A stretch of DNA of 64,000 nucleotides from Raja brachyura (Eukaryota). Shown piece after piece: positions 21,571 to 58,983 of the stretch. Each line of letters starts with the position of its first letter. The stretch's first letter is position 1. Under the pieces are notes generated by a model. That model was not told where the DNA came from. It worked only from the letters and a program-made list of their open reading frames with translations, and made no database searches. The position numbers were made by a program, and so were the translations under genes. Location of the stretch: NCBI GenBank assembly GCA_963514005.1, contig OY740814.1, positions 11,904,001 through 11,968,000 of the forward strand. Reading direction: 5' to 3'.

Positions 21571-22067
21571 CTAGTATGATAATTACATGATGAAGAAGTC
21601 ACTGAATGTTCACTTATACAACATCGAAATATTAAAAGATACATTATTTATAATATTTCACTTTCATATAAAAACCTATCAAACTCTGCATGTATATAAA
21701 ACATTTCTTAAAAAAGTCACTGAGCCAATTTGCTGGCTCTTTTTTATGGAGACATTATCTGATGGAAGAAAGTAAGAAATATTGATTTTAGGCTATAGGC
21801 CCATCAATATATGGATTTAACAATGCTAATTACATTATTAAATGACCCAAAACCACAACCAACAATTTGGTATGGGATAAATCTTGACATGATTTTTTGA
21901 TATTAAACACTTTCATTTGGCCAGGTTCATGAATAGGCATGAAACAAATGTTGGCAAATATCTGTGCTTGGTACACAATATCTATTGCACCACAGCTGTT
22001 ACAAAATAATTAAAAAATATATAATATAGCTCTTAGCTCCATTTTACACAAGGCAGGATACAAATCA

Positions 22068-22225
22068 GTCTGAATATGGGTCTGAAGATGATCAGTCTGA
22101 AGAAGGGTCTCGACCCGAAATGTCACCCATACCTTCTCTCCAGAAATGCTGCCTGTCCACCTGAGTTACTCCAGCATTTTGTGTCTATCTTCGATTTAAA
22201 CCAGCATCTGCAGTTCTTTCCTACA
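22068..22225 (+). mobile_element. Short Penelope-derived hammerhead-core insertion, 14-bp TSD
   Basis: CAGGATACAAATCA at 22054-22067 and 22226-22239; core CTGAAGAAGGGTCTCGACCCGAAATGTC. Confidence 0.85.
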
Positions 22226-22897
22226 CAGGATACAAATCACTACTTGCGCATTACAATGTGGGTGTTGCTTGTCAACGATGCACCATCCTGCAGCGGAAGG
22301 GGTCTACCTCAATTTACCTTGATCTAATACACTTCTGACCATGTGCATACAATGGTGTCTTGTGCTTCTTGTGCATAGTGGTGGAAAGATTGGTGGAAAC
22401 AGGGCCGCGACGTGAACGCTCTTTCCTTAACCTCAATTATCAACCGTGGTGTAACGATTGCCACAGGATTCATGCAGGTCCTTGCTGATAAATATGCCTG
22501 TGCCCAACAGACATGTGCAGCATACATATGACAAAAGCCATGTTGCCAAAGCAAATCTAACATAACAGACTGTCAGCACACAGAAATACGGGGGAAACAT
22601 TTGTGTAATTTGTGCAAAACAGTATTGAATGTTTGAATAACCTCCGAGAATGTCAGATTAATTTTTTGCATGGTATTGTATTGTATATATTTATTACTTG
22701 AATAAAGTCTATTTTGATTTGTTTTTAAATGTTTCCACTGCCTACACTACTCTGCAGGATCTCTGTAGTACTCATTACAACAGCTTTCAGATCTATTGTA
22801 TTCTCCCACATATTTCACAACTAGGTTAGTATGACATGATAGCCTTTATCACCAGCAAGGATTGAGAGCAAGTCCGAAGTGATATTTAACAGCCTAG

Positions 22898-23128
22898 ATA
22901 GACACAAAGTGCTGAAGTGACTCAGCAGGTCAGGCAGGATCTCTGGAGAAAAAAGATGAGTGATGTTTCCTATCTGAGTTACTCTAGAGTCTGAAGAATC
23001 GCAACAGTTTGAAGAAGGGTTCCAAGCCGAAACGTCATCTGTCTTTTTTCTCCAGAGTTGCTGCTTGACCCACTGACTTTGTGTCTATTTTTGGTATAAA
23101 CCAGCATCTGTGGTTCTTTGTTTCTACC
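22898..23128. mobile_element. Palindromic (inverted pLTR) Penelope-derived insertion
   Basis: Inverted arms; TSD TTAAC(A/T)GCCTAG at 22886-22897 and 23129-23140. Confidence 0.75.
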
Positions 23129-24359
23129 TTAACTGCCTAGGTTGTCCATGAACAACTCTTCTCTGAGTGATAACAATTTCTGGACTACCACTTACAGATC
23201 TTTCAACAGTTGCCACCCCAATTATCAATGCATCTACATAGACATCATCATAATAATCATATTTTATTAGCCAAGTACGGTTTGCAACATACAAGGAATT
23301 TTCATAATGGAATGAATACTTCCTCCTGTCTTACTTTTGGCAAAGTAAATTTATAAATGAAATCATGTCAAATAATGGTCAAGTAATCACACTTGTATAT
23401 TCCCACTGGGTCCTCTTTGGTTCTGTATGCCCTACTCTTCTTCATAGTGCAATCTCACTGACCCACTGATCTTATCCAGACTGGTCTTTATGTCACACAA
23501 GTTCCACACCAACATGATTCAGTCTTCATACCCTTTCATGTAGAAACAAACAACTGCAGATGCTAGCTTATATCAAAGAGACACAAAGTGCTGGAGTAAC
23601 TCAGTGGGTCAGGCAGCATCTCTGGAGAAAAAGGATGGGTGGTGTTTCCCGCTGAGTTACTCCAGCACTTGGTTTCTATCTTCACAGCCTTTAAACTGGT
23701 CCTGCAATCTTCTCAGCGTCAAACCACATTTCAAGAAGGCAGCCTAAAAAATGCCAACTCTGTCAGGGACATGCATAGTTTTTAATTTAGCAAAATACAT
23801 GATTAAAATAATTCCGTAGAAATAAACTACTACGCATTATGCTCAATGTAATAATAATACATGCATAACCCATTTTGTATAACTTTGGCAGGATACAGAA
23901 AACCTTAAAATAGAGTACATTTTCCATTCCTAACCATAAGATGGCAGTAACAAGTAATATTCCCAATTTGGCATTATATTTCACTGCCTTGGAATAGTTC
24001 AGTAACTATATCCAATCTTTCACATAAATTCCAAAATGGTTTTAGAATATTAACACTTCAGTTTTGATTGAGAAAAATAATATTGGCCTGCAGTGTATCT
24101 AAATAACTAATCCTTAATGAGAGCACAAAAGGCTGCAGAGCTGAAGTTTCCAGTTTGATTCCTGGTCCATACTCACTTAGATGTTGCCAGCTGTAGACAT
24201 AGATGGGAAGCATGATTGATCACAGTGCCCAAGGAAATAGACACATTTCACTGGGCTTCTTACTCCTGACAACCAGTGCCTTTATTGAAAGCTGTATACT
24301 GGATAAGGACAAAAAAGGACCAAACAGCCCTGCACTCCATGGACAAATAAAAGCGACAG

Positions 24360-24547
24360 ACACAAAATGCTGGAGCAACTCAGCGGGATTGGCAGCATCT
24401 CTGGAGAGAAGTAATGGGTGACATTTTGGGTCGAGATTCTTCTTCAGACTCTTCTCTCAGAGATGCTGACTGTCCTGCTGAGTTACTCCAGTATTTTGTG
24501 TCTATCTTTGGTTTAAACCAGCATCAGCAGTTCCTTCCTACACACGT
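24360..24547. mobile_element. Palindromic Penelope-derived insertion, 16-bp TSD
   Basis: CAAATAAAAG(C/T)GACAG at 24344-24359 and 24548-24563; inverted arms around a decayed hammerhead core. Confidence 0.8.
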
Positions 24548-26018
24548 CAAATAAAAGTGACAGTGCTTCCTTCTATGATCAAACATATCCTTTATACATG
24601 AAGAGCAATCAGAAGTCCGCCATTACCAATGTATCAAGAGCGCCATTAGATCAGGAGAGAAAACATGGAAAACATCCATGAGTACATGCAATGTTTCTAT
24701 AGTCCACATACACATAACACTAAAACGTAAAACCTATAAAGAACAACACTGCATTATAAAAACTTGTAATTAAACAATACTGTCTAGGAGCAAGAGTATG
24801 CCGGACAGTTTCTCCAGCCAATTGCACCAGTCAGTAAGGTCATGTGGCACCACTACTAGGATCCAAAATGCTGAATTCCAGCTTATGCCCTGCAATCTTA
24901 CAGCCCTTCACATCAAGAATCCCTCTACCTCTAATTTAAAATGTTCAAAGACTATCATCGTAGGAAGAGAATTTCAATGATTTTGCAACCTTGTGGGAGA
25001 AAAATTGCTACCCGTTCCTTATCTTAAGTCTCCAGTTTTATCACAGAAAATTGCTCACCAAAGATGCAACATAAAAGAAAAAATACTAGATAAGCTCTGC
25101 CGGTCAGGCAGCATCTGTGGAAAGACAGAGAGTCAATGTTTTGCAGACACAAACGTTACCTTTTCTTCCTGCAGTTGTTGCCTAGCCTGCTGAATTTCTC
25201 TCGTATTTTCAGTTTGTATTTCAGATTTCCAATATCTGCAACTCCTTTTTTAATCTCCAGTTTACTTTCATTGTGCAAACACAAACAGGTGCATATTTCT
25301 ATTTCAATTGAATTTTCACAAACACGAAAGTCTCCTAGTTTTAAATAAATAGAGACAACACTGGAAGCACTCAGCAAGTCAGGCAAAATCTGTGGAAAGA
25401 ACAGCTAACATTTCAGATCCTTCATCGGAGCAGAGAAAGAGAAAAAAAAATCCAGGATGTTCTGGAACCTGCGATTTAAAAAATTGGACCCATTCTATTC
25501 AAATAAATAGCAGTAAATTAAGAGTAGTCTGCAAATCTCAGGAAAATAATGGGGTGGAAGATTGCAACCTTCACGTGGTCCGCCCTGTTTCCACTAATGC
25601 AATCAATTCGACGTGCACAAACGGAAGATCAAATAGGACAAGTTGTCCAACAACTTTAGGCTGTGCACGCCACATAAAAGAAGAAGAAGAAGGAAAATAA
25701 TAATAAAGTTTTCGCAAATGAACCGATAACTTGGAAGGTCCGAAAGGATAGTAATCTGAAATGTGGAATTTAAATGCCAATTTAATTTGCCAAATTGACT
25801 GTACTTTTACTAAATGTTATGTGGCCTTACACACTTGTGCATGGAATCACTTTGATTTTCTCTCCAGGGCCAATATGAGCAAATCATTAGGGCCTATGAA
25901 GCAGATCAATTGCTGCCTTATGTAGCTATCAGGGGCGGCAAAGCCTATCCACAATGTTTGTAGAAATGCAACAATTTAAATGGATCAGTTTACTCAAATG
26001 TTATAGTATGAAATATAC

Positions 26019-26192
26019 CTTTTGCAAAGCGAGCACTTGTTGCTGTAAACCATCACTTTTCTTTTGTACCTCATCAGCCAGGCTTTTATATTTCTCAATT
26101 TGAGACTGCTGGATGTTCGTTGCCTTTTGTAATCGGTTGCGTTCTTCCTCTACCTCCTTTACATGGCTACTCAAGGTATTATTTTCATCATC
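26019..26192 (-). CDS. TEX9: TEX9 coding exon 9
   Basis: aatag|GAT GAT GAA...CAA AAG|gtatat; 174 nt; EEERNRLQKATNIQQSQIEKYK. Confidence 0.94.
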
Positions 26193-26422
26193 CTATTAAG
26201 CAACGGTAAAAACTGTGAAACATAATCAAAAAGATAACTTTATCCAAAATCTGTCAACTGAAATGGTCAAACCCACAATCACCATCAAGTTCATTAAATA
26301 AAAATGGAAGAAACTAGAAATACTCAGCAGGTCAAGCAGTTTACATGGAGAAAGGAGCTGAGTTAACATTTCAGATTAATTTTCTCTCGTCACAATTAAG
26401 ATCAGATATATCACATCATATT

Positions 26423-26545
26423 CTGCAGAAGGGTCTCGACCCGAAACGTCACCCATTCCTTCTCTCCAGAGATGCTGCCTGATCTGCTGAATTACTCCAG
26501 CATTTTGTGTCTTCGATTTAAACCAGCATCTGCAGTTCTTTCCTG
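26423..26545 (+). mobile_element. 123-nt Penelope-derived hammerhead-core insertion, 11-bp TSD
   Basis: CACATCATATT at 26412-26422 and 26546-26556; the insert begins CTGCAGAAGGGTCTCGACCCGAAACGTC. Confidence 0.85.
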
Positions 26546-28084
26546 CACATCATATTTGTGTTGAACGTATCTATTTTTTTATTAATCATAAGGTGAAGCT
26601 CACAGCACGAATAAAGGTATATTTTGTGGTGAAATTCTGACATATTTGTCGTATCATCAGTAATTTCCGCAGCAAGTGGTGGATTTCTGCAGATGTAAAT
26701 GTTGACAAATTCCAGGCATTTGATTGGGATGGCTCTGGCTAATGAAGATTGCCAGCTAACTTGGAGAATAGACCAATGGTGCAGGAGATTAGAGATGGAA
26801 CATTTATTTTTGTTAAAACCAGAGTTTGCAACCTTTCTGAAATTGATCTGAGGCAGAATGTAAGCATCAAGATATTTTCAACAAGATAAACCATTCCACT
26901 GAAAACGATATATGCCCTGTTAAAATAAAACTGTCAGTCGGGCAAATGTGTCAAGAATTTGCCATAATTCAGTTAACATCTACCAGATGTGGGATATTTT
27001 CAGAATTCTCAATATGTTTAATATGTTTAATATTAATATATTGAAACTTTATGGTTGAGGTCAAAAGGCAGTCTTACCAAAGCCTTTAACCACAAACAAA
27101 ATATATCAAAGAGTTTGATTACAATTTAGCTGTGAGATACATGTAACATAATTATACAGATGCAAATAACGGCCACTTTTTATGTATGTCTACTCTGCTA
27201 TTCTGAGTACTATTTTCTCTATTTTAATTGCATTGCCAATGCATGTATAGCAAATATTCTTGACAAATTCATCGCCTTGGACCCCAAGATCCCTTTATAC
27301 ATCAATGCAGTTCAGGGTCTTGCCATTAACCGTATACTTTCCCCCTTACAAAGTGCAGCATGTCACAGTTACTCATGTTAAACTCCATCTACTTTTTTTA
27401 TGCTTATATTTGTTACTGATCTAAATCCAAAAGCAACAGAAATACTGTGGCCAATTAATTCACGGAATGCACAAGAGATTTTATTTTAAATCGGTGTGTT
27501 GAGGAACCTTCAAAGGAACAAACTATTTTAGGTTCAGTAATGCGCAAGGAAAAAGCGTTAATCTATGATCTGGGGTCTTCAGGGAGCAGTAATCATGATA
27601 TGAAAAAATCTTATGTGAAGATTAGAAGTGATTTAGTTCAAATAGTTCCAAATAAAGCAAACTACAGATGCACAGGCGTCTATGATAGATTGGGATCAAC
27701 ATTAAACACATAACAATAAACAACCACTGGCTAACTGTTATTGAATTAAGAAATTGTTTACAAGTAATATATATATCTAAGGCAAAAGATGTGAACTAGT
27801 CAAGTGGTTGTATACACCGTATATCCCTGACAGATTCCGATTCTCATCATCCTGAACTATCCCTCTATTTTTTCTGTGTAGCTATAAAGGGGAATGAAAG
27901 GTTGCATTGGATCAAAATAATCAATGTATAATATTGCCAAATAAAAAACAGAAAACCTTATGATTCAGAAAACATCAGAATTAAATAAATGACGAAAGTT
28001 GAAGCAGAATATAAGGGTAAGGTTAAAAACAGATTGTAAGAACTTCTACAGATAAGTATAAAGAAAAAACAGAACCAAGTCAAG

Positions 28085-28690
28085 CCGAGTTTATTTTTAC
28101 ATGTGCAAGAATGGAGGTATAGGTACAAATGAAAATCTGGCTTGCAGCAGCACCACAGACACCTAGACAGTCAACACACAAAACAAATTATGCATACATT
28201 GCGCATTAAATTACTAACAGAAAGAATACAGTGCCAAAATCATTAACACAAGACACAAATTGTATCAGAAAACAAGACCATGGTAGGGCAAAAGGAGGTC
28301 CATAGTGTTCTGTTTGTAGAGTTAGGATTTGGGTTGTGTGGGGCGGTTTGAGGATCTGATAGTTGTAGGAAAATATCCATTCCTGAACCTGGAGATGTGG
28401 GTTTTCTGTATCTCCTGCCTGATGTTAGCTGTGAGATGAGGACATGGCCGAGACTGTGGGAATACTTGATGATAGATGCCGGCATCTTGAGGCAGCACCT
28501 CAGACAGATGCTTTCGATAGAGGGGAGGGTTATACCCTCGATGGACCAGGTTGAATCCACTACTTTACATTTTCTGACCGTGGGAATTGCTCGGCCCGGC
28601 CATGATGCAACCGGTCAGGATACGTCCTACTGTATATCTGTGGAATTTTTTCAGTAATATGCCAAATGACTTTAAACTTCCACGAGAGCT
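28085..28690 (-). mobile_element. Rex/Babar-like LINE 3' fragment
   Basis: FHRYTVGRILTGCI and LPSIESICLRCCLK..SIIKYSHSLGH..SGRRYR remnants. Confidence 0.65.
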
Positions 28691-29428: not shown

Positions 29429-30388
29429 GATTTAGATGAGGAAATTAAATGTGACATCTCCAAGTTTGCGGATGGCACAAAGCTGGGTGGCAGTGAGCTG
29501 CGATGAGGATGCTATAAGGCTGCAGGGTGACTTGGATAGGTTGGGTGAGTTGACAGATGCATGGCAGAAGCAGTATAATGTGGATAAATGTGAGGTTATC
29601 CACTTTGATGGCAAGAACAGGAAGGCAGATTATTATCTGAATGTTGTAAGATTATGAAAAGCGGATATGCAACGAGACCTGGGTGTGCTTCTACATCAGT
29701 CACTGAAAGTAAGCATGCAGGTACAGCAGGGAGTGAAGAAAGCTAATGGCATGTTGGCCGTCACTGCGACAGGATGAGAGTTTAGGGGCAAGGAGGTTCT
29801 ACTGCAATTGTACAGGGCCCTGGTGAGACCGCACCTGGAATATTGTGTGCAATTTTGGTCTCCTAATTTGAGGAAGGACACTATTGCTATTGAGGGAGTG
29901 CAGCGTAGGTTCACCAAGTTAATTCCCGGGATGGCGGGACTGACATATGAAGAAAGAATGGATCAACTGGGCTTGTATTCACTGGAATTTAGAAGGATGA
30001 GAGGGGGTCTTATATAAACATATAAAATTCTTAAAGGATTGGACAGGCTAGGTGCAGGAAAAATGTTCCCAGTGTTGGGAGAGTCCAAAACCAGGGATCA
30101 CTGTTTAAGAATAAGGGGTAGGCCATTTAGGACTGAGATGAGGAAAAACATCTTCACCCAGAGTTGTGAATCTGTGGAATTCTCTGCCACAGAAGGCAGT
30201 GGAGGCCAATCACTGGATGTGTTCAAGAGAGAGTTAGATTTAGCTCTTAGGGCTAAAGGAATCAAGGGGTATGGGGAAAAACCAGGAACGGGTTACTGAT
30301 TTTAGATTATCAGCCATGATCATATTGAATGCAGTGCTGGCTCAAAGGGCCTACTCCTGCACCTATTTTTCCATTTTTCTATGTTTCT
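29429..30388 (+). mobile_element. CR1/HER1 LINE, 5'-truncated, fairly young
   Basis: KFADGTKLG, YRALVRPHLEYCVQFWSP..EGVQRRFTKLIPGM; tail TTTCTATGTTTCT. Confidence 0.9.
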
Positions 30389-32564
30389 GAACACATTGTG
30401 TCTCTTTTTCCTTGGAAAGAGAAGGTTAAGCAGGTTGATGGTCTTTTAAATTATTCATGAATTTGAACAGTGTGGATGTCGTAAAGATGTTTCCGCAGAC
30501 CAAAATTAAAGGCCCTAACATAAGATAGCCAGCCACTACTAAATCCAAATGGAATAAGGAGACACTTATTTATTCAGATAAATAAACATATCTAGGTTTC
30601 CCTTAAATACATCGTATGAATCATCTCAACTACTTTCTCCAGTAGGAAGTTCTCCATTCCGTGGAAACTGTCCAACTGGAGGAAGTAGTTGTGATGATCC
30701 ATAAGATGTATTTAAGGGAAATCTAGATAAGTGTGAAAGTAGAAAGAAAATAAAAGGATCAGTTGATGAGCTCAATGAACAAGTATGTTCCATGTTCTGT
30801 CCATTTTGAATTTGAATTGCAGCAACAGTCTGAACATGAATTGCAGCATTTTGGATTTTCGTGATGGAAATATGAGCGTACATGGTAGCTCTCAGACATT
30901 CTATTGCTTCTCCTTGTCCTGTAATGGAAGATGTGACCTCTGGCTTCTAAGGCAGAATGGGTCTGGAACTGCTCAAATGGAGCTGGCTACCATTTCCATG
31001 CTGGAAAAGCTTTGTGAAATGCGCCATGATTTGTTGATTTTTCTTTCCTCATTTCCAGATTGTTTTTCCACAAATGCCTGGCTAGTTACAGTCCTTGGAT
31101 ATAAAAGGAGCAATGCACAAGAATGGGGTTGTTGAAGGCGTGTCTGCTTGCTTCCACTGTCTGCAGCTTCTAAAACAAAAGGGATTGTGTGAGGAGGGAT
31201 TGTGTGAGGAACATGGAATGTAAGAACACATAGGAATGCGGATATCATTTTATTCTATGATTTAAGACCTGCCATGTTGACAACCTTAGAAATAGCCACT
31301 CCAAAGATAGTGACCACAGTCTCCTCAATGAGGGGAAGAGATGCAGCTGTCCCAACTGGTTAGCTGCTGCTCCCTTCATTTATCCTCTGCATAGCAAGAA
31401 CATAGGAATGTAAGTAGAATGTTAGAATATTGGGCATGTTCCATCTTTCAGTGAAATCATGTATTTGTGACCTTGTCACATGGCTCAAATTCCCTTGGTA
31501 ACTTTGGATTGTAAAAACCAATCACCCTCAGACATAATAACATTAATTGTACTGCAAGAGAAATTGGGATATTGAGTCAAGCAATTTGTTAAGATGATGT
31601 GTGGCCATTATTGAATAGCTGTAAATGTACACAGTTTCTGATATATTGGTGTGAAGCTTTCAGCAGAGTTTGCTGTATTGCAGGGGAGGATGTGATTGCA
31701 AGGTTAGAGTCCTGGTAGCCATTTGACAGGGAGGTGTGATGTACTGAGCAATTGTTGACACAAGTAGTCCATTTCATGGTGTATGGCATCTGAAGATAGA
31801 TTCACTGGCCTTGTCTACCTTTCCTGGTGATTGTAAGGGATAAGGAGGATATTCAGAGAATATAAAGTTAGGGGGGGGGGGAGAAACACTGAGATTAGAA
31901 AAAAAACAGCCTTCAAACTACTTCCATTAAATATCTCATACAATTATAGTTAAACAGCATGGAAACAGGCCTTTCAGCCCAGCTCACCCTTGTTGACCAA
32001 GTTGTCTGCCTGCACTAGTCCCATTTGCCTGTGTTAGGCTTATATCCCTCTTTTCGATCCATGTACCTGTTTAAATGTCTTATAATCCTAATTGCCTTTC
32101 TTATATCATAGAACCAGAGTTTATTTTTTGATACTTACCAGTAGTGATAGACTTCGAAATCACAGGGTACAGTTATATACAGATTGACTGCTCTGTATCC
32201 CTAACAGTAACTATGGTGTTTATGAAGGCCACAGCCACTTGACATTAGTAGTTTTGGAAAGTAACCACTGTATCCTCAACAAATACATGTGTACCTGTTC
32301 AATTTTTGGTATATAACAAATGAGACCTGACCAGACAGGGATGGTTGGCCAAATGTGCAGGAAATGTACTGGGCAAAGTTGAGGTAGTCAAGATGGATAA
32401 CTCACAGAGCTAATGGCTGACAAATCGCTGGGACCCGATGTCCTGTACCCAATGTTTTAAAAGGAAGTGGCTGCAGAGGCAGTAGTCCCATTGGATAAAA
32501 ATTTTCAATACTCAAATTCCGAGATGGTACGAGATTTGGAAAACAACCAATGTGATTCCCTTGT

Positions 32565-32688
32565 GTAGGAAGGAACTGCAGCTGCTGGTTTAAACCGAAG
32601 ATAAGACACAAAATGCTGTAGTAACTCAGCAATACAGGCAGCATCTCTGGAGATGGGTGACGTTTCGGGTCGAGACCCTTCTTCACAC
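32565..32688 (-). mobile_element. 124-nt Penelope-derived hammerhead-core insertion, 14-bp TSD
   Basis: TGTGATTCCCTTGT at 32551-32564 and 32689-32702; minus strand begins GTGTGAAGAAGGGTCTCGACCCGAAACGTC. Confidence 0.85.
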
Positions 32689-34837
32689 TGTGATTCCCTT
32701 GTTCGAAAAAGAAGCAAGGCAGAATGTGCAGAAAAGTAGGCCAGTTAGTTTAATATCTATTATTTGCAAAATAATAGAATCAATAATCAAAGTGGAAATA
32801 TTTAACCAGTAAGGAATGCTGAATATAATCAAACCTAATCAACATAGTTTTCGCAAAGGTGTCTATTTGACCAATTTACTCAATTATTTTCAGAATATGA
32901 CAGGAGAGGGGAATTTGTAGTGTAATTAGATTGATTAGGTGTAGTATTCAATCATGGTAGTATTCAAGTATGGTACATACAAGTAAGAGACCGAGGTACT
33001 GGGCAAGGCTCGTTACCATGATTGAATGATGGCTGTCACATAGAAAACAACTAGTTAGATAACATTCAGTCTGGAGGGTCTAATGGAGTACTGCAGGATT
33101 GGTTCTTGAACCACAAATTTGTTCACTATTTACACAAATGACCTGAGAGAGGGAACAAACTGTCAGGGTTCCAAGTTTGATGATGATACAAAATTAGACA
33201 AAAAAGACGTTGCTATGAGGATATTGTGATTCTGCTCAAATAGAGTGATTGGGTGAAAAACTGGCAAATGAAAATTAATGTGGGGAGCTGTGAATGTTTA
33301 CACATTTTGGTAATAAAATCAAGAGGCAGATTCTTATCTGATTCGAGGGACTGTAAATGAAGCTGTAAATGAATAATAGAGGGATCGAGGTGTTCTAGTG
33401 CATGCATCAGAATAAGTTAGCAGGCAGTTCTACTACTATCTCACCCCCTCACTATTTAATATATCACTCTATCAGATTATTCCTCAGCTTCTTCCATTCC
33501 ACTATCCAATCTCTCCTAGTAACCAAAATGCTCCAATCCAAGCAACATCCTGGTGAAAATCCTCTGCACAAGCGCCAAGATCTTACAAATTCATTACAAT
33601 TTTTAACCTAATCACTTGCCCAATTAAATTTCTAGCACCACCCTCCAAAGTTTTAATTTTAAAAACTCCATTAAAAATGGCATTATGGGAAAGGTTTTTT
33701 TAATCAAGTGACTCGATTAGCTTCGCAATTTGAATTTCAATTTAATTTCATCAATCATACTGAAGCAGAGTAAGAAACTGAACTGATGGAAGCTTTCATT
33801 TTAGACCCTAGAAATTCAGTCACATTACACAAATGCCAACTTCATCACTTAAAGTTTGCCAGGAAGCTGACTGTGGCTCTATGGTAATTAAATCCGAAGT
33901 ACCAATATCAGGTGCACCCTAGGCCTCACCATTTAGATAAAACGATTCATCTATGCCCCCAAATATCTGGGCCCAAGAGTGTGAGCATTTCATTCCACAG
34001 CCTGTTCTGAACCATTGGGAGCAACGGCAACAATGAACAACGAGCAAGTGACTCTGTTTTCTTTAGCTAGGAACAGCTAAGACAGAATGGAAAGAATATG
34101 GATATTGGGTGATGGCAGGATACTTAAAATGAGGTTTTAAAGGACACACTGTGCTTGTAGAATCATAGACTAGCAAACACTTCATGTCATTATGAGAAGG
34201 AAACAAAGAGAATATAAGTAGCAGTAAAAAGAAGATGAAAGAGCAGGGAATCAGAGTTATTGGGATGAGAATGGAAAGTGGCCAAATATCAATCCAGCCA
34301 TAGTCTTGTAGCTGAGGTTGACGATCAAATTAAGTTCTGATGCTACTGAATTTCAGGACCATGTCCTATTCTACTCTCATGTTTTTATATCCTCAAAACA
34401 GAAACATAACTGATTAAAAAAATCTTGTTCACCTTGTTGATTACTAAAAAATACAATTTAAAAATCTGTTTTCCCATGCTATTAATTCAGGAGCTACAAC
34501 TTAAATAGTCTCTTGCTCTTTCTTAATTCCTATTTATATTTGTGATATATATTTGTAATATTAATTAATCTAAAACTTAAATTGTTTAAACCTAACAAAT
34601 CAATTTATGGGCTTTCGTAATTCATCAAATTAGGACCCAAGTTCTCCATTCAGCAAATTTAAATTTATTCCACAATATTTAATTCTATCCAAATGTTTCT
34701 TGCTCACATTACTGGTAGTGACTGAAATGCTTGTGATCAATGTATCCAAATGAAAATACCTTGTCTCTGAAAAAAATTGAGGCTTTGAACAACCGAATTG
34801 TGCAGTGTAAAGAGTAAAGCGATGCATTCCGACCCAC

Positions 34838-36663: not shown

Positions 36664-37999
36664 CTAAAGTACACAATTGAAAAAAAAAAAAAAAGATTTC
36701 TGTCACTATACAGTTAAGATTTCAATATGTGCAGTATCATGTTTTTCATTTGATAGTATTTAAAGCTAACAACAGACAAAATATATTCACAACGTCTAAG
36801 AACTCAATGCAGGGAAATCTCAAGGAGAAGTGTGCAAATAAATGGTGCAAAAGCACTTTAATACTCACAAGACACTGTTCAATAATTTTGGTTGGAAATT
36901 TCAGGCGTGCTAGGGAGAGATGTAAAGAGGAGGGGCGTTGCATTATTGATCTAGGAGTCATCACTGCAATACTGGGGGAGGGTGACTCAGAACGCTCTTC
37001 AAATGAACCCATATGAGCAGAGCTTCGGGGGGAAAAAGGCAAGAATTTCCAAGTCAGGAGGAAATAGAGGAGATGGTATGTTGGCAAATCATGGAAAGAT
37101 GTAAAAGGAACAGGATTATAGGAGTTGAGAATTTCAATACCCCAATATGAATTGGCAATGTGAAAGGATTAAATGGTCTTATGGTTAAATGGTTAAATGG
37201 TAAAAGAATAAGGGGTAGGCCATTTAGAACTGAGATGAGGAAAAACATTTTCACACAGAGAGTTGTGAATTTGTGGAATTCTCTGCCTCAGAAGGCACTG
37301 GGGGCTGATTCACTGGATGCATTCAAAAGAAAGTTAGATAGAGCTCTTCGGGCTAGCTGAATCAAGGAGTACGGGGAGAAGGCACGAACTGATTGTGGAT
37401 GATCAGCCATGATCACATTGAATGGCGGTGCTGGCTCGTGCACCTATTGTCAATGTATCAATACAGGTAAAATAGGAGTGAAAAAAACCCCCAATTAATT
37501 ACGTTAACCAGCAAAAAACCCAACAACACAAAGATATGACTTTCAACAAAGCAAGACATTTTATAACACAACAATGATTGACAAAAAAAACAACTTCCTG
37601 TTACGTGTAAAGTAGGTCATAGCAAGATTATAATTAGAAAGCAAGTTAAGAACCCACTGTGTGAACTGCATATATATTTTTTAAAGTAAGCAAATTATCT
37701 TTGCACTAAAACCATCATACCCTACAATCATGAGGGTAGGGATACATGTAACATATTAGGCCTATTTAAGTTTTCAAGTTGTAGAAAACAACATAGAAAA
37801 CATTTACAAGAAAGGAACCAAGATGTTTGGAAGAGCAATTAAAAATAAATTGTCAATGTCATCATTATGAAAGTTTAGATTTTTATTCTAATTATTATTT
37901 TTATACAGGATTCACTGAAGAAATAATTGGGTTTCATATGTCTTTTTAAAGAATCATTGATTTGACTGCTTTTAAAGTTGATAACTTTATTTGTGGATT

Positions 38000-38580: not shown

Positions 38581-38589
38581 TCAATATAG

Positions 38590-39360
38590 GGAAGCCAAGA
38601 ACTGCAGATGCTGTTTTATACCGAAGATAGACACAAAGTGCTGGGGTAACTCAGTGGGTCAGGCAGCATCTCTGGGAAGAAAAGAGGGGTGACGTTTCAG
38701 ATTAGGACCCTTCTTCAGAAGTTTACATGTACCTCATTTAACCTCATCTACTGCATTAGTGTTCCCGATGCGGAGTCCTGTACATCGGCAACACCAAACG
38801 TAGACTCTGCGACCATTTAGCTGAACACTTATGCTCAGTCCGCCTAGGCCTACGGGATCTCCCGGTTGCCAAGATTTCAACTCCCTTTCACATTCACAGT
38901 CTGTCCTGGGCCTCCTCCATTGCCAGAGGGAGGCCACATGTAAATTGGAGGAACATCACCTCATATTTCGCTTGGGTAGCTTACAACTCAGTGGTATGAA
39001 CATTGAATTATCTAATTTTAAGTAACTTCTGCTTTCACTCCACTCTCCTCCCCCTCCCCCCTTGCTCCCTTCCTCCACCTAGTTGTTTCACCAGCTCCAC
39101 AGTTCTCCATATTGTTTTTACCTCTTGAGATCACACCTTCACGAGCCAACAATGGACCTGATCAGGCATTGCCATGCCCGAGGTCATTTGTGGCCGGTCC
39201 GGATTGTTCCTGGTCTTTTCTCGCCCCAACCCCCTCCCCCGCCTCCACCCCTTATTTTCTGTTTGAAGAAGGTTCCCGACCTGAAGCATCACCTATCCTT
39301 TTTTCTGCAGAGATGCTGCCTAACCTACTGACTTGCTCCAGCACTTTGTATCTATCTTTC
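38590..39360 (+). mobile_element. Penelope fragment: inverted pLTR piece, GIY-YIG remnant and 3' pLTR
   Basis: SVLGLLHCQREATCKLEEHHLIFRLGSLQLSGMNIE; opposing hammerhead-like cores at ~38690-38718(-) and ~39262-39292(+). Confidence 0.8.
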
Positions 39361-39769: not shown

Positions 39770-40155
39770 TATAGAGACGTACAAAATTACTTAAGGGGTT
39801 GGACAGGCTAGATGCAGGAAGATTGTTCCCGAAGTTGGCGAAGTCCAGAACAAAGGGTCATAGTTTAAGGATAAGGGGGAAGTCTTTTAGGACCGAGATG
39901 AGAAAATCATTTATCACACAGAGAGTGGTGAATCTGTGGAATTCTCTGCCACAGATGGTAGTTGAGGCCAGTTCATTGGCTATATTTAAGAGGGAGTTAG
40001 ATATGGCCCTTGTGGCTAAAGGGATCAGGGGGTATGGAGAGAAGGCAGGTACAGGATACTGAGTTGGATGATCAGCCATGATCATATTGAATGGCGGTGC
40101 AGGCTCGAAGGGCCGAATGGCCTACTTCTGCACGTATTTTCTATGTTTCTATCTT
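39770..40155 (+). mobile_element. CR1/HER1 LINE 3' end
   Basis: SRTKGHSLRIRGKSFRTEMRK..QRVVNLWNSLP; TTTCTATG tail. Confidence 0.85.
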
Positions 40156-45806: not shown

Positions 45807-48031
45807 AAGCGAGTTCGGTATTCCGACTGTGCATGCCCAGGTCATAGGTCACTCGCCATAAACATTGTTGGTAACTGAGCAGCTGAACCACCGTTTCATC
45901 TGTATTTTCCAGCTTTGATTCTTCTATGGAAGAAAATACTGCTTTCAAACTGAATTAGTTGTATTATTTGTTCCTTTACATAGCTACGATGCAGGCACGT
46001 GCCGTCAGGGTAGGCAAGGTAGGCACTGCCTACCCTGACTAAAATTATGAAATGGGAATTATTAAATATAAATAGTAAAGGCATGGGAGAATTATGCCTA
46101 TGTAAGAGACTGATCTCTTAGGTAGGCATAATTCCCCGTGCCTTTCACCCGCAGCGCTTGTGACACGGGAAGCTCTGTGCAGCCCCCGTGCCGTCAGCGC
46201 TGCCTGAAGCCGTCAATTTTAATCGGGGCTGAAGGCAGCAGAAATCCTGCCTTTGTAGCACTGCGCATGCGCATCAGTCTACTGCGCATGCGCAGCGCAA
46301 GTTTATTGGCGGGGTTTTCAGCCATGGTTTGTCGTGTCCCAATTATATGGTAAGTACATTTTGTGATTTTTTTTTTAATACCGTATTTGCCGGGGTGTGG
46401 GAGTGTGTGGGAGTCGGAGTGGGGGGAGCGCTCCTTTCACAGCGTTTGGGGAGTCTGGCCCGGGGTAACGTTGCGGGGAGGGCACAAATGTTATGAATGA
46501 GGGGTCGGGGGCATCCACTTGCGTCGTTCCTTGCAAGGGGGCATGAAATGACACTGCTCTGAGGCTGGGGGGGGGGGGGGGGGGGAGAGAGAGAGAGAGA
46601 AGTAGCTCGAGCGGCCGCCGGGCCGTACAGCGGGACCAGCCGCCACCTTAGCTCCAGAACCACCCGCCCACCTCTGGCAGCTCTCCATCTAAAAACCTCT
46701 CTCCTGCCGCTCGCTGGCCTCACTCATGTCCTTAAATTCCGACAGCGCGATTGAGGTTACTCGGCTGTGGGAGTTTAAGGATTTGCTTGCTGACATGAGT
46801 GAAGTCGGCGAACGGCAGGTGACAGGTGTTCAGACGGAGAGCACTGCCAAAGGTGAGCGGGCCGGCAGAAGGCGCTGAAGCGGCGGCCAGTTCAGCTGTC
46901 GGGTCCCGGTGGCCGCTCCCCGAGCTGCTTCTATCCCCAGCTACAGTCCGTGGCTTCGCACCCGGAGAGCTGCGGCAGCAGTGAGGGAGTGAAGATTCCA
47001 GCACTTTGTGATAAGCCACTGTTTTTATTTATTTATTTATTTAACGGGGAGAACAATCTGCGCATGCGCGGTTTACATTTTTTTTAAAGCGGACTGAGTG
47101 CCTACCCAGAGTAATTACTCACGGCACGTGCCTGCTACGATGGTTTTGTCGTTTTTATTGCTTTATGCTTCGGTGAGCAAGCGAGTGTGCGTTTCATCCA
47201 TGCTCGGGGTCGGGCCCGGGTCTCTGGCGCTGGGGGCGCTGATGGAGTTGCTCGGAGGCGGCTGGAGGTGTCCAGAGTGGCCCTGTGCTGGCGGCCCTGG
47301 ACTTGCAGCTGGTGCAGAGGGGGGTGGGTGGGTGGGTGGGTGGGCGCTGGCTCGGGCTCGGCTCTGCTCCAGCTCCCGGGGGTGGGGGCGTCAGCTGCGC
47401 CTCTCCCTGTCGGTTGGCCCCCTTTGGGCCGAGCACCGGCCATCGGCGGGATGCATACGGGGTGCTGCGGTGGCTCAGCGGGTCAGGCAATATCTCTGGA
47501 TAAAGGTCTCGACGTGAAACATCACCGCTTCTTCTCCGCGCTGGCTGTGGGCCCGGGGCCGCCGGTGTCCCATCCGTCTGGGACTGTCGGTTGGCCAGGC
47601 GGAGTTGAGCTGGGGTTGGCGCTTCTTCTCCGCGCTGGCTGTGGGCCTGGGGCCACCAGTATCCCGTCATTCCGGGGTCGCCCCGGCCGCCCCCCAGTGG
47701 CGGTTCGGCAGCATTTGTGGCGCTGGGGACCCAGGTTGGATCCTGGCTGCTGATGAGGTGCGGGTCTGTGTGCGCGCAGCAGACGAGAATGTTTCTCCCC
47801 TGTCTCCCACTCACATCTACCCTCTCTCTCTCTCTCGCTGTTACACCCCGCTCTCCCGCTACCTGGCACCCCTGTTCCTCAGATGAAATATATTTTTACA
47901 CATAAATTATGAATAAAGATAAGAATTTATACAGTTTATAAAGGCAGCGCTTCGTTTGCTTTTTCTTTAGGGCAAATGACCTTTGACAAATCCCATGATT
48001 CCTTGCATTTTTCGGAATACCAAACTCGCTT
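45807..48031. mobile_element. Unclassified non-autonomous TIR DNA transposon (outer element, hosts the hAT)
   Basis: AAGCGAGTTCGGTATTCCGA (45807-45826) is the inverted copy of TCGGAATACCAAACTCGCTT (48012-48031), 19/20. Subterminal GTCATAGGTCACTCGCCATAAA resembles the reverse complement GTCAAAGGTCATTTGCCCTAAA. TSD not resolved. Confidence 0.7.
45992..47134. mobile_element. Non-autonomous hAT-type DNA transposon, 14-bp TIRs, 8-bp TSD
   Basis: TIR CAGGCACGTGCCGT / ACGGCACGTGCCTG; perfect TSD CTACGATG at 45984-45991 and 47135-47142; repeated subterminal TAGGCA/TGCCTA; no transposase ORF. Confidence 0.9.
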
Positions 48032-50180: not shown

Positions 50181-50408
50181 TTGGTATAATTATGGGAATG
50201 ATGTATTATAGCTAGAATTGCTTACAAGGCAAAGACAGGTGGGAAAGCAAGTTTGTGGAGGACAAAGAATCTGTAAAGAATATAGGTAGATTACGTGCAT
50301 GGAAAAACATTAGGGAAAAAATGTATATTATAGGGTAGTAAAGTTATTGATTTCGGTAGAACAGAATACCAGAGTACATGCTGTTTAAATGAAAAGAGAT
50401 GACAGAAA

Positions 50409-50660
50409 GGTAGACACAAAATGCTGGAGTAACTCAGCGGGTGAGGCAGCATTTCTGGAGAGAAGGAATTGGCGACGTTTCGGGTCAAGACCCTTCTTCA
50501 GACTGATGTCAGGGGAGGAGGCGGGACAATGAAAGAATATAGGCGGAGACAGTAAGACTAGTGAATTCCTTCTTTCCATAGACGCTGCCTCACCCGCTGA
50601 GTTACTCCAGCATTTTGTGCCTACCTTCAATTTGCCAGCATCTGCAGTTATTTCTTAAAC
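50409..50660. mobile_element. Palindromic Penelope-derived insertion with hammerhead core
   Basis: ~60-bp inverted arms; core GTCTGAAGAAGGGTCTTGACCCGAAACGTC on minus; imperfect TSD AGAGATG(A/G)CA. Confidence 0.8.
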
Positions 50661-51710: not shown

Positions 51711-51831
51711 TGTAAGATAGCACCTCCAATATCCCGTATGCGCTATGAGTCAGCATTTGGAGGCATCACCTTACCAAACCATTTTAGAGCATGACCAAAA
51801 TGCAATAACTTCATAACTCACTCAAACTCAC

Positions 51832-51895
51832 CTTAACTTCTTCAGCTTGCCGCAACAGTTCAGCTGTTTTTGCTTCCAATTCTGCATTTAATTTC
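51832..51895 (-). CDS. TEX9: TEX9 coding exon 3
   Basis: aattag|G AAA TTA AAT GCA...GTT AAG|gtgagt; 64 nt; KLNAELEAKTAELLRQAEEV. Confidence 0.95.
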
Positions 51896-51979
51896 CTAAT
51901 TAAATATGACATGTTTTATTAAAAATAGGCAATGAATAACTACATTAAAATATAACCTAATGGAGAGAAACATACGTAC

Positions 51980-52074
51980 TTGTACTCTTCTTCTTTAGAG
52001 AGTAAATCTGGAGGAACTTTCTTTGCTGAAGCTGATGGCAGGGAGCCAGATCTATTAGACATTACTTTCTTCGT
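51980..52074 (-). CDS. TEX9: TEX9 coding exon 2
   Basis: atctag|ACG AAG...TAC AA|gtacgt; 95 nt; ...PPDLLSKEEEYK. Confidence 0.92.
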
Positions 52075-55000: not shown

Positions 55001-55147
55001 CGAGTCCTCCTCCTCCTCCGGTCAGAGTCAGACCCTGTGCTGCAATGCCCGGGTAAACGATCAGAACAAATCAGCCAGTGAAGAATGAATCCGAGCCCCC
55101 TCACTGCCGGTGCAAAGCCTCCCTCCCTCCCCCCGGCCGCCTCTCAC

Positions 55148-55177
55148 CGAGCTCGCCGGCCGTCGCCGACCCTCCAT
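55148..55177 (-). CDS. TEX9: TEX9 coding exon 1
   Basis: Kozak GCC ATG G; MEGRRRPASS|gtgaga in a CpG island; phase 0 fits exon 2. Total CDS 1170 nt = 389 aa plus stop. Confidence 0.85.
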
Positions 55178-55194
55178 GGCGTCGCCGCCGCCCG

Positions 55195-55208
55195 GTTTCC
55201 AGGGTAAC
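55195..55208. promoter_or_regulatory. RFX X-box in the TEX9 proximal promoter/5'UTR
   Basis: GTTTCCAGGGTAAC (rc GTTACCCTGGAAAC) closely fits the X-box consensus GTTNCCATGGNAAC, 17 nt upstream of the ATG, inside a CpG island (~54975-55600). Confidence 0.75.
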
Positions 55209-55269
55209 GAGCGGGGAAACTGCGCGAGGTCTGCGGAGGGCGGGATGGAGACTCGGGGAGGCCGGGCCC

Positions 55270-55590
55270 ACCTGAGGTGACAGACACCGCCTGTAGCCCA
55301 GGCCCTCCCTCCCCGCCGGACCCCCTCCCCGGGCCCTGAGGTGACAAACACCGCCTGTAGCCCAGGCCCTCCCTCCCCGCCGGACCCTGAGGTGACAAAC
55401 ACCGCCTGTAGCCCAGGCCCTCCCCCCCCTCCCCGGGCCCTGAGGTGACAGACACCGCCTGTAGCCCAGGCCCTCCCTCCCCGCCGGACCCCCTCCCCGG
55501 GCCCTGAGGTGACAGACACCACCTGCAGCCCAGGCCCTCCTCCCCCCCGCCGGACTCCCCTTCGCCGGGCCCTGAGGTGACACCGCCTGC
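55270..55590. repeat. GC-rich minisatellite, ~52-68 nt unit, five copies plus a partial
   Basis: Recurring CCTGAGGTGACA(G/A)ACACCGCCTGTAGCCCAGGCCCTCC...CCCCGGG at ~55270, 55334, 55386, 55438, 55502 and 55570. Confidence 0.92.
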
Positions 55591-55609
55591 AGGCCGGGCA
55601 GAGGACACT

Positions 55610-56500
55610 TGTAGATGCTGGTTTACACCGAAGACAAACACAAAATGCTGGAGTAACTCAGCGGGACAGGCAGCATCTCTGGAGAAAAGGAATGGGAGAA
55701 GTTTCAGGTCGAGACCTTTCTTCAGACTAACAGTCAGGGGAGAGGGAGTCACGGATATAAGGAAGGGTAGTAATGCCCCTGTCCCACTTAGGAAACCTGG
55801 ACGGAAACCTCTGGAGACTTTGCGCCCAACCCAAGGTTTCCGTGCGGTTCCCGGAGGTTTTTGTCAGTCTCCCTAATGGTCGAAAGTGGTTTCCATTTTA
55901 AAAATCGGTAATTTTTTAGTCGAAGCCGGTTGCGATGCTAGTTGAAGGTGATTTGCGGAGGACAAAAATCTCCGGGAACCGCACGGAAACCTTGGGTGGG
56001 GCACCAAGTCTCCAGAGGTTTCCGTTCAGGTTTCCTAAGTGGGACAGGGGCATAAGGTGCGAAAACGACAGATCAAAACAAATGATGGTAAGGTTATGTA
56101 TAGGAAGGAATGCAGATGCTAGTTTACACCAAAGATAAACACAAAATCCTATAGTAACTCAGCGGGACAGACAACAACTCTGAAGAAAAGTAATAGATGA
56201 CATTTTAACCCGAAACGTCACCTATTCCTTTTCTCTAGAGACACTGAGTTACTCCTTATTTTTGTTTATGATAAGGAAATGTAGTATAGTTCATATTGTT
56301 GGCCAAAGGGAAGGTGACAAGGAGGCATACAATCAGTAAAATTAATCAGAAGGTCAGTAAAACTAGTCAGAGAACCAGGATGGGGAGGGACGGAGAGAGA
56401 GAAAGCAAGGGTTACTTGAAGTGAGAGAAATCAAATTTATACCGCTGGGTTGTAAGCTGCCCAAGCGAAATTTGAGGTGCTGAGGTGCTGTTCCTCCAAT
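55610..56500 (-). mobile_element. Penelope 3' fragments, interrupted by a MITE
   Basis: pLTR/hammerhead-like pieces at ~55700 and ~56210; GIY-YIG C-terminal remnant at 56412-56500. Confidence 0.7.
55774..56052. mobile_element. PIF/Harbinger-type MITE, ~85-bp TIRs, TAA TSD
   Basis: TGCCCCTGTCCCACTTAGGAAACCTG...CAGGTTTCCTAAGTGGGACAGGGGCA, flanked by TAA at 55771-55773 and 56053-56055. Confidence 0.88.
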
Positions 56501-56964
56501 TTGTTCCGCAAAAGTACCAGACGGCACTCGTTAGCACAGCCGCAAAGATGCATTGATTTTTCCGCAGCCCGTATAGGTTAAAGAGGATGAGAGACGATGA
56601 GTTGGGATAATACTTACATGAATAGTATGTAGGAGGCATGATCAGTAAGTGCACAGATGACAGGAAGATTGGTGTAGTTGTGAATAGTGTGGAGGTTAAT
56701 ATTTAGCTGCAGATTGTTATTGATGTGTTGGTGAAGTGGGCTGATAAATGGCAGATGGAGTTCAATACAGATAAATATGCAGTGATGCATTTTGCGAGTA
56801 CTAATGAAGCTGGGACATACACCTTGAATGGGGACCAATGAAGAACAGAAGGGAGTACAAGTCGAGCAAACTTTGAAAATGGCAACACGAGTAGTTAATG
56901 TGGTTAGGATAGCATACAGTATGGGATACTGTATTGGCCTTCATTAGTCCGATGTTGAATATAA

Positions 56965-57973
56965 TTCCATTGGCTCCATTTGTGTCCTGGATCATCAACG
57001 ACCTAACTTGACGACCGCAATATGTCAGGCTACAGAACTGTGCCTCGGACATGGTAGTGAGCAACACGGGGGCCCCACAGGGGACAATCCTCTTTCCCTT
57101 CCTGTTCACCATCTACACCTGGGACTTCAGATATAACTCCTGCCACCTGCAGACGTTTTTGGATGCTCCTGAAATTTTGGGCTGCATCATTGAGGGGAGG
57201 GAAGCTGAATACAGAGGTGTAGTCAATGACTTTGCTGAGTGGTGTGAGTTGAATCACCTGCAGCTCAACACTGACAAGACTAAAGAGTTAGTGGTCGACT
57301 TTAAGAGGAGGGGAACAACCCTGTCCCCTGTCTCCATTAACGGTGTGGATGTGCAGTTTACCAAGGAGTACAAATACCTTGGAGTGTACCTGAACAGTAA
57401 ACTGGACTGGCCCAGGAATGCTGAGGCCATGTACAAGAAGGGACAGAACCGGCTATACCTTTTGAGAAAGCACGCTCCTTCAACGTCTGCAGCAGGATGC
57501 CATCTTCTTTGCTGTTGTGTGCTGGGACAGCAGGGTGAAAGCCGCGGACGGCAACAGGATTAACAAACTCATCAGGAAGGCTAGCTCTATCCTGGGGGTT
57601 GAGTTGTATTCATGGGAGGTGGTCTTGGAGTGGAGGATGCTCTCAAACTGTGGAGCATCTTGGACAATACAGCTCACCCCCTCCATGACACACTAGTCAA
57701 CCTGAGCAGTGCCTTCAGCAACAGACTGGTTCCACCAAGATGCAGCACAGAATGCCACAGGAGATCTTTTTCCCTTTGGCTATCAAACTTTACAACACCT
57801 CCCTCTTATGTTGTGGGGTAGATTGACTCCCATGCCCCCCCCCCACCTCTCTCCCCAAATCTTTACACACCCCCAACCCTTTTCACTCATAACTTTAATT
57901 TCATGTATCTTGTGTTTTATGACTGTTGGCAGGTCAATTTCCCTCCTAGGATAAATAAAGTTATATTGTGTTG
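56965..57973 (+). mobile_element. Rex1/Babar LINE, 5'-truncated, inserted in a CR1 fragment (56590-58050)
   Basis: RT VSNTGAPQGTILFPFLFTIYT..WCELNHLQLNTDKTKELVVDF..YKYLGV; tail GGATAAATAAAGTT; candidate TSD TATAA. Confidence 0.85.
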
Positions 57974-58859
57974 TATAAGTACAGGGAGGTTATGCTCCAA
58001 CTTTATAACACTTTGTTCAAGTCTTACGTGGAGTACTGTTTGCAGTTTGGGAGACATGCTCCAGGTCCTTCCAAGCATCCTAAACTGAACAGTTTGCAAG
58101 TTCAAAATGCAACAGCCTCGTAATGTATCAAATTAAATCATAGGCCAACCATGGACAATGTGTAGTTAAACCAGGGAACCATTCTGATATTGCTGCATAT
58201 CAAGTTCCCACAGCCCAATTGTATGCAGCATTCAGTAATTTTCTACAATCTGAGAGGGACATCAAGCATTCATATCTTCTTCATTTTTCACGGCAGCAGA
58301 CAAGCTGGCTGCTTTCCACAACCATTCCTCAACCACATACAGTACAGCTGTTTCGAAGAGAGAGAGGCTGTAGGGGAGAGGAAAGGTGCCCCAGAATCTC
58401 GTGAAAGATACCCAAATTTTCATCAGTGAAATGAAAAGCAAGGGGGTGGGCATCTGGAGACCCGCTCGGACCTTCATTGGAAGGAGTCAGGAAGTGACTC
58501 CAGTTATCTTCTTCATATCCAGATATAAACCATATCTTCACAAAATATATCAGAACATACTACCTATCACAAAGAACAGTCCAGGCAAGCCATTTTTCTG
58601 TGGATCGTGGATTTATTCTTTGATATATTGTGCAGATGCAGTGCAGTGGGATATGGATCACATGCCGGCAGATAAGACGCATTTAGCTTGGCATATTCGG
58701 CAGGTACATGGTGGGTCAAAAGGCCTGTTTCTGTGCTGTGCTGTTCTATGTTTTGAAAACTGCTATCTCTCCTCTCTTTCCCCAGTTCCGAACAAGTTGA
58801 AACAAACACAGAACTGATGGACGAACAGCCAGTCAAACAGGGTTGGTGGAAAGAGAAAT

Positions 58860-58983
58860 GTCTGAAGAAGGGTCTCGACCCGAAACGTCGCCCGTTCCTT
58901 CTCTCCAGAAATGATGCCTGTCCCGCTGAGCTTTTTGTGTCAATCTTCAGTTTAAACCAGCTTCTGCAGTTCCTTCTTACACA
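58860..58983 (+). mobile_element. ~124-nt Penelope-derived element with intact hammerhead core
   Basis: Begins GTCTGAAGAAGGGTCTCGACCCGAAACGTC and ends CAGTTCCTTCTTACACA, like the copies at 26423 and 32565. No clear TSD. Confidence 0.8.

Follow-up and report, generated by a model that had tools for sequence, protein, structure and literature searches.

Solo terminal repeats of a Neptune-type Penelope-like element in Raja brachyura share a sharp 5' boundary that probably marks the end of an RNA template

We analysed a stretch of 64,000 nucleotides from Raja brachyura (assembly GCA_963514005.1, contig OY740814.1, positions 11,904,001 to 11,968,000 of the forward strand; hereafter the window), in which a sequence-only reading had described four dispersed copies of a unit of about 125 nt that starts at a hammerhead ribozyme core. 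The unit, of about 130 nt, is the terminal repeat at both ends of a Neptune-type Penelope-like element (PLE) of about 4 kb, which agrees with the earlier proposal that it is mobilised by Penelope, and its solo copies share a sharp 5' edge. These solo copies are probably (roughly 0.7) derived from reverse transcriptase (RT) that started in the 5' repeat of an uncleaved and probably capped transcript and ran off its first base. Throughout, position 1 is the G of GTCTGA and -1 the preceding A, R denotes the repeat from 1 to about 131, and U denotes element sequence 5' of R.

The element was found by walking upstream from window positions 1285-1420 until complete copies were reached, and its layout is R-ORF-U-R. 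A full-length copy (L241) consists of a 3,971-nt unit with R at each end and an open reading frame (ORF) of 1,192 amino acids, which starts 35 nt 3' of the tail and encodes YIDD at residue 839, a C-X4-C-X2-C linker at 1059 and a GIY-YIG core at 1096 with the pattern LIYC..C..C...Y.GE. The ORF also contains a CCHH motif, LIYCIRCSRCQLIYIGE followed by two His, of which the two Cys lie within the GIY-YIG core. Pfam matches to RVT_1 (E = 2e-4) and GIY-YIG (E = 2e-3) were weak and both below the curated cut-offs, and a sequence search of the PDB found no relative. A CX2-5CxxC linker 5' of the endonuclease (EN) is ascribed to Neptune and Nematis, and not to Penelope and Poseidon, in the passages of PMC8557442 that define these groups. 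Since RT and GIY-YIG, CCHH and linker fit those definitions, the element would be an EN+ PLE of the Neptune/Nematis type, as judged by published motifs. Four units stand in tandem on C18 with a period of 3,965 nt, and partial and full tandems, inverted 5' copies and an optional tail are all present in this element. The R type of the four copies described earlier is likewise found behind endonuclease-coding DNA in older subfamilies (38 pairs of a high-scoring segment and an R).

Some further features of the element may be recorded here. The first ATG of L241, at about 160-170 and 30 nt after the tail, overlaps a sequence closely resembling a 5' splice site (AAG/GTATG). PLEs often carry 5' introns; among the contig joints listed, none fitted this site. 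Residues of about 165-465, which separate the RT region from a short N-terminal domain, form a low-complexity stretch of about 300 amino acids rich in Pro, Ser, Thr and His, and the ORF is therefore much longer than the 830-840 amino acids of rotifer PLEs. The loci L234, L279 and L267 include a head-to-head R unit that lies, with a 17-bp duplication, within the ORF of another copy, as well as young tail-to-tail pairs.

We tallied the ends of 98 distinct young copies, obtained from the first 100 matches in genome order to an internal 40-mer (R 43-82) at 86 loci, with extra copies in the flanks included and four local-repeat matches left out. Their 5' ends fell at -5 to +6 in 48 copies (mode -1), at +7 to +42 in 12 and at -6 to -50 in 5, while the rest had longer U or ORF sequence; apparent ends at -159, -165, -211 and -212 are poly-C alignment breaks and were tallied as U-bearing. 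The excess at the boundary was about 21-fold per position over its neighbours (p ~ 1e-30), and the edge position is the A of YCAGTC. The tally shows a sharp peak and not a uniform spread, and the recurrent 5' boundary noticed earlier is thus real. No prior description of a fixed 5' boundary ahead of a hammerhead was found in literature searches, the scope of which did not include repeat databases. At the other side, where a single end had been assumed, there are two: 60 of the 98 copies end at 91-99 and 34 at 123-133, which are 35 nt apart and match the known optional tail of 30-40 bp. This tail has been traced to two internal RT start sites, according to the part of PMC11167929 that deals with initiation.

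When copies were counted across the genome on condition that the two bases before the start mismatch, A(-1) was the start of 3,806, as compared with 262 at +31, 160 at +33 and 239 at +35. The ratio is approximate because the search patterns are not of equal length and do not cover the same subfamilies. Position +31 is the first base past the predicted cleavage site and has no excess over +33 and +35, and none of 30 U-anchored copies ended at +30. Because of the few starts at +31 and the 0/30 U-anchored ends at +30, cleaved RNA is not the main template, in line with what PMC11167929 says of the substrate; the previous argument that cleavage does not explain the boundary is supported by the same counts.

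The junctions carry signs of a template end. Among the matches listed, a G directly preceded A(-1) in 56 of 100, compared with 27% in non-C flanks (p = 9e-10), and among matches with A as the previous base, the class least prone to stutter, it did so in 18 of 28 (p = 3e-5). At young loci a G stood before 29 of 51 peak starts but before only 18 of 66 other truncation points (p = 0.002), a test from which 4 of 202 ends in the poly-C zone were excluded along with ends where the next base of the template is G; the sets used for these comparisons overlap in part. In several cases the G is located between the target-site duplication (TSD) and the element. Full-length LINE-1 copies are known to carry an extra 5' G. 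By this precedent the preceding G would be a copied cap, and our literature searches on cap-derived G found no paper.

We also examined 30 loci chosen by the first 227 nt of the ORF, a selected set from which no genome-wide frequency follows. Twelve of them read from position 1 to x (x = 353-1296), then 0-9 extra bases, then R again from -3 to +8. The first segment begins at about position 1 or within R, and in all 12 the ORF never resumes behind the second R. Such chimeras would result if RT ran off and then jumped to an internal position in an RNA that includes the ORF. Nested insertion was considered for the same loci and rejected, as it would leave the rest of the ORF behind R, where it is absent. 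Nine of the 30 loci begin at -2 to +5, namely eight chimeras and L232, which extends for 1.86 kb or more, up to the limit of the DNA retrieved. In the window, the 5' end of one solo copy is a stutter (22068-22094, plus strand) in which the first 7 and 9 nt of R have been re-copied with untemplated bases between them. It can be read as repeated run-off and jump-back at a template end, and would then be a miniature of the run-off-and-jump event. Among the head-to-head pairs, 11 of 42 are centred on an AG(T/A)CT near-palindrome at the boundary when 4 mismatches are allowed, a minority class that falls to 0/42 with a stricter criterion which we judged too strict; in these pairs two run-off ends of complementary DNA (cDNA) could anneal.

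The course of events that we propose would begin with RNA polymerase II (Pol II) starting at or a few bases from the A of YCAGTC, with the hammerhead core occupying nucleotides 4-31 of the messenger RNA (mRNA). The endonuclease would nick the target and RT would initiate internally at the two tail-flanking sites, as is described for another clade in the mechanistic part of PMC11167929. Initiation on the 5' R would give a cDNA of about 96 or 131 nt that resembles strong-stop DNA and would often gain a C opposite the cap plus a few untemplated bases. This cDNA could be joined to the target (solo copies), re-copied (stutters) or paired with a second one (head-to-head copies), or it could jump to an internal site of an RNA template. 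Initiation on the 3' R would yield the ordinary 5'-truncated copies with U and ORF.

A profile search gave 542 matches in a 1.064-Mb sample of seven contigs, 88 of them in 66-bp tandem arrays, and by rough extrapolation the 2.7-Gb genome would hold 0.7 to 1.1 million fragments. For the youngest subfamily, an exact 40-mer was counted 42,553 times genome-wide. Among 191 matches with an intact 5' end, 88 were solo, 42 had an inverted partner, 54 reached into U and 7 more possibly did so; the U upstream of R is pyrimidine-rich and subfamily-specific. Solo (n = 43) and U-bearing (n = 35) young copies showed no allele differences and similar divergence (1.7% vs 1.5%), a comparison made in a young subfamily distinct from that of the four copies described earlier. 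The latter belong to older sister subfamilies, in which the boundary is the same and less sharp. Eight tandem arrays of 4-30 units, 88 in total, lie at C42:8008938-8077734 (L111-L118), with a 66-bp unit that corresponds to R 23-89 of an older subfamily. They are a minisatellite derived from the pseudo-long terminal repeat (pLTR) and not a retrozyme, because the CUGANGA half of the hammerhead is missing.

When A(-1) is taken as +1, the sequence fits the vertebrate initiator (Inr) BBCA+1BW and, in older subfamilies, the Drosophila TCAGTY too, with CGANC at +18 to +22 and a partial match to the downstream promoter element (DPE) at +28 to +32, according to the consensus sequences in PMC5580651. 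Inr and CGANC occurred together at 57 of the 34,523 Inr sites of the sample, and 23 of the 57 were R-like. For D. virilis Penelope, the promoter data in PMC2377424 place an internal Inr/DPE promoter in the pLTR. The 60 nt upstream of R were unstructured, with folds of 0 to -4.4 kcal/mol in 10 out of 10 examples. By inspection, the common subfamily variants and the window copy at 58860 have the features of a minimal PLE type I hammerhead (CUGANGA plus the extra base, G10.1-C11.1, GAAA, palindromic 15.2-16.2 and NUH), as had been suggested, except for a longer helix I, which here has 2 bp only. Stem II varied from U-A to U-G only, with no two-sided change, and the hammerhead-like folds were less stable than the alternatives, both as a monomer (-4 vs -5 to -7 kcal/mol) and as a dimer (-12.7 vs -19.7 kcal/mol). 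In the covariance check recommended earlier, no hammerhead family was among the 5 Rfam matches of the copies at E up to 1. The hammerhead-like core is a candidate ribozyme by its motif, and an uncertain one.

Several points weigh against run-off at a capped 5' end. The transcription start site (TSS) and the cap are deduced from DNA, and the 24 sequencing runs listed are all assembled contigs, the RNA status of which is mostly a guess. In other organisms, loose ends that coincide with the boundary may be the U of other subfamilies and are uninformative on transcript starts. All 98 copies were drawn from the initial 4.2 Mb of a single contig and represent one young subfamily, which is not that of the four window copies, and their starts are scattered over -5 to +6, pyrimidines at +2/+3 included. 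The promoter match was noticed after the fact and is partial, with 1/3 positions in the second block of the motif ten element (MTE) and 4/5 in the DPE. One subfamily is without the A of CGANC, and the promoter-like bases also build the hammerhead and are thus constrained by both. Nor is the geometry universal, given that D. virilis Penelope has an intron between TSS and hammerhead in the accounts of that element in PMC4209133 and PMC8557442. The G excess was weaker with all subfamilies pooled (37 of 100 among the matches listed, p = 0.02) and in older solos (10/21, p = 0.056), and RT could add an untemplated C, which needs no cap. Ten of the 30 ORF-start loci have U 5' of the 5' R, and longer or read-through RNAs or further jumps must therefore serve as templates too. 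Finally, in a same-molecule test, double run-offs had an exactly identical start in 3 of 8 cases.

An unlikely alternative, which is compatible with run-off, is that the solo R has its own internal promoter and is re-mobilised in trans as a non-autonomous unit resembling a short interspersed element (SINE). The promoter-like motifs (Inr-like, CGANC and DPE-like) are all placed at the boundary or 3' of it, as in the internal promoters of long interspersed elements (LINEs) and of Penelope in D. virilis as presented in PMC2377424, and solo and inverted copies are the majority of the 5'-intact matches (88 and 42 of 191). In the young subfamily, however, no allele separates solo from U-bearing copies, and ORF-bearing pieces have the same boundary (9 of 30 loci). 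Many solos start at +1 to +5 and have lost the initiator, and there are several subfamilies, each with its own U-bearing partners. The discrete retrozyme- or SINE-like family that was envisaged originally is not upheld, as the unit forms the ends of an autonomous element, solo and longer copies share alleles and there are no tandem hammerhead repeats. Neither the allele comparison in the young subfamily nor the repeat layout revealed a separate SINE or retrozyme lineage. As to a Pol III-derived SINE head (tRNA, 5S or 7SL), the copies gave no such Rfam match, and the whole unit aligns to the PLE end.

Somewhat less likely still is that the RNA extends upstream and that the boundary reflects a site at the base of the ribozyme fold where RT is strongly arrested or the RNA is processed and left uncapped. 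R can fold with about 4-14 paired to the tail, so that the boundary adjoins this helix and stem I, and any forced RT stop could gain untemplated bases. Yet a stall at the helix of about 4-14 predicts ends near +14 and not at -1, and the fold of R is no more stable than that of shuffles (z = -1.5). The sequence that RT would meet next is unstructured and differs among subfamilies with the same boundary, and G is enriched at the boundary peak but not at other truncation points. The stop at the ribozyme fold offered in the sequence-only reading thus fits poorly: the boundary lies 5' of the whole fold, and the junctions show additional bases and jumps, as is typical where a template ends. The 5' end of a transcript, which our data favour most, was not among the options offered there.

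We consider it very improbable that a first exon of very few bases is spliced to R at the boundary, which would then be a 3' splice site. In all subfamilies U closes with a pyrimidine-rich stretch and CAG, AG often precedes the start, and in D. virilis the end of an intron maps to the 5' end of helix I (PMC4209133), but the solos have no fixed preceding exon sequence, their starts range from -2 to +5 where an acceptor would fix +2, a GT follows in the template at 0 of 10 anchored jump junctions, and there is no second peak of 5' ends in U. Least credible of all is an origin from hammerhead-cleaved or circular RNA in a retrozyme cycle, since, despite the minimal hammerhead anatomy and the 262 copies that start at the first base of the cleavage product, that number resembles its neighbours and lies about 15-fold under the A(-1) class, counted with a different pattern, no U-anchored copy ends at +30, and no tandem hammerhead units occur, the 66-bp arrays being without CUGANGA.

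If the solo copies are products of run-off at the transcript 5' end, a sharp prediction follows: a capped start 3 nt before the ribozyme core, templates that have not been cleaved, and jumps after run-off. As a tentative extension, which we hold to be possible but doubtful, the first 33 nt of the mRNA may combine a downstream core promoter (Inr, MTE/DPE-like) with a minimal hammerhead, and normal transposition may start with target-primed synthesis of a strong-stop cDNA from the 5' repeat, which then jumps to the other end of the RNA in the manner of long terminal repeat (LTR) elements; stubs, stutters, hairpins and the chimeras of a 5' segment plus R would then be failed jumps. If true, such LTR-like strand transfer would explain the regeneration of pseudo-LTRs. 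The element class, the tail and the ribozyme motif are known, and no new family is claimed; of value are the boundary and the junctions, as a record of PLE replication. With its intact ORF of 1,192 amino acids and over 42,000 near-identical ends, the young family is a natural record of copying, and its solo stubs would record the copying mode of a little-understood class of elements.

In the window, the profile search gave 34 matches, in place of the estimate of about 14 copies and cores made from the sequence alone. The four solo copies named there are all present, and three have perfect TSDs and are independent insertions, as claimed. The first is the tailed R with the stutter (22095-22225, plus strand, position 1 at 22095), flanked by a perfect 14-bp TSD (22054-22067 and 22226-22239). 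The second (26423-26545, plus) has a perfect 11-bp TSD (26412-26422 and 26546-26556). The third (32565-32688, minus) has a perfect 14-bp TSD (32689-32702 and 32551-32564) and a 7-nt deletion. For the fourth (58860-58983, plus), no TSD was found within 400 nt upstream, even with one mismatch allowed. A hammerhead core had been attributed to all four; it is intact solely in the fourth (58862-58889), the others having a change in the stem III palindrome (first copy, core 22097-22124), at A6 (second) and at C3 (third). In a control with mispaired flanks, a match of at least 9 bp within 60 nt of the start occurred in 2 of 369 pairs, while at long range the false rate of the scan was 14% (53/369), and it was therefore applied only near the start. 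From the TSD analysis we excluded 133 of the 542 sample hits, corresponding to the whole array-bearing C42 part (88 array and 45 other hits).

That the unit is not self-contained is evident from the window itself, where a 5'-truncated young Neptune-type element (1153-2254, minus) has the same repeat (tailed R, 1157-1284) behind U (3' untranslated region, about 1285-1530) and the GIY-YIG-coding 3' part of the ORF, flanked by a 15-bp TSD (1138-1152 and 2255-2269). An older decayed copy (38692-39359, plus) consists of endonuclease-coding remnants, then U, then a short-ended R (39262-39359), and the R copy at 55610-55727 (minus) has a short piece of U upstream. A head-to-head pair at 24354-24547, with a short minus arm (1-99) and a tailed plus arm (39-132), is enclosed by one 10-bp TSD. 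Another such pair (minus 1-103, plus 17-131) is located at 61515-61728, and in an inverted pair at 50405-50659 the minus arm has about 60 nt of U 5' of R.

Other features of the window include coiled-coil coding exons at 13827-14279 and 5286-5687 (both plus), of which the first matches Pfam TPH (E = 2e-16); they presumably belong to the host gene MNS1, and if this is read correctly the R copies near the beginning of the window may lie in introns. A weak Rfam match to the CPEB3 ribozyme at 22383-22445 (minus; 23.4 bits vs a gathering threshold of 35, E = 0.089) includes about 22 nt near-exact to the ribozyme core. Its fold is not stable (z = +0.8), a CPEB gene is not in evidence, and the match is probably due to chance. 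Long dispersed or inverted repeats at 29688-30331, 37197-37438, 39784-40153, 57012-57563 and 60274-61244 are LINE fragments, which we take to be CR1/L2-like. GC-rich islands are located at 46000-48000 and 55100-55610, the second with a GC-rich tandem repeat of 64-bp period that adjoins an R copy.

The element shares with the EN+ PLEs Neptune and Nematis (Craig et al. 2021, PMC8557442; Arkhipova et al. 2013, PMC3846280, both as regards their sections on structure and insertions) the RT with C-terminal GIY-YIG, the CCHH motif and the CX2-5CxxC linker, as well as partial and full tandems, inverted 5' copies, the optional tail of 30-40 bp, variable TSDs and frequent 5' truncation. Unlike in those sections, about half of the young insertions here share a sharp 5' edge before the hammerhead and consist of the terminal repeat only; the solo pLTRs of Adineta are there said to be without TSDs and are ascribed to recombination or deletion. 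Likewise, the Poseidon element PAc of Anolis (Frangieh et al. 2024) has two internal RT start sites, which bound the tail, and a hammerhead about 100 nt 5' of them; its substrate is uncleaved RNA and both target strands are extended, as stated in the biochemical part of PMC11167929. It belongs to another clade, and its ORF starts inside the hammerhead, whereas here the ORF starts 135 nt after it; TSS mapping and run-off insertions are not described in that part of the account. With the minimal PLE hammerheads (PMC4209133) the core has in common CUGANGA, the extra base before stem II, G10.1-C11.1, a 4-bp stem II and the GAAA-CGU-C palindrome, as well as the occurrence as dispersed single motifs and nearby inverted pairs, and the Acropora Neptune row has the same layout. 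Helix I is 2 bp here and in D. virilis compared with 3-5 bp in most of the hammerheads listed, and unlike in these the transcript apparently begins right at the hammerhead. Non-LTR retrozymes (Li, Clavereau, Pollet 2026, bioRxiv 10.64898/2026.07.22.740005) are likewise derived from PLE pLTRs, have a type I hammerhead and were found in a chondrichthyan, but are characterized in the core description of that preprint as tandem repeats with a complete hammerhead per unit, in contrast to the dispersed monomers and head-to-head pairs here. Complete hammerheads in at least two consecutive units, the criterion for a retrozyme, were not seen, and the only short-period arrays in 1.06 Mb were those of 66 bp. 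In LTR elements, minus-strand strong-stop DNA is a short run-off cDNA made at the capped 5' end of a terminally redundant RNA. The process proposed here would differ from it in that priming occurs at the chromosomal target instead of from a tRNA and that the product is inserted directly.

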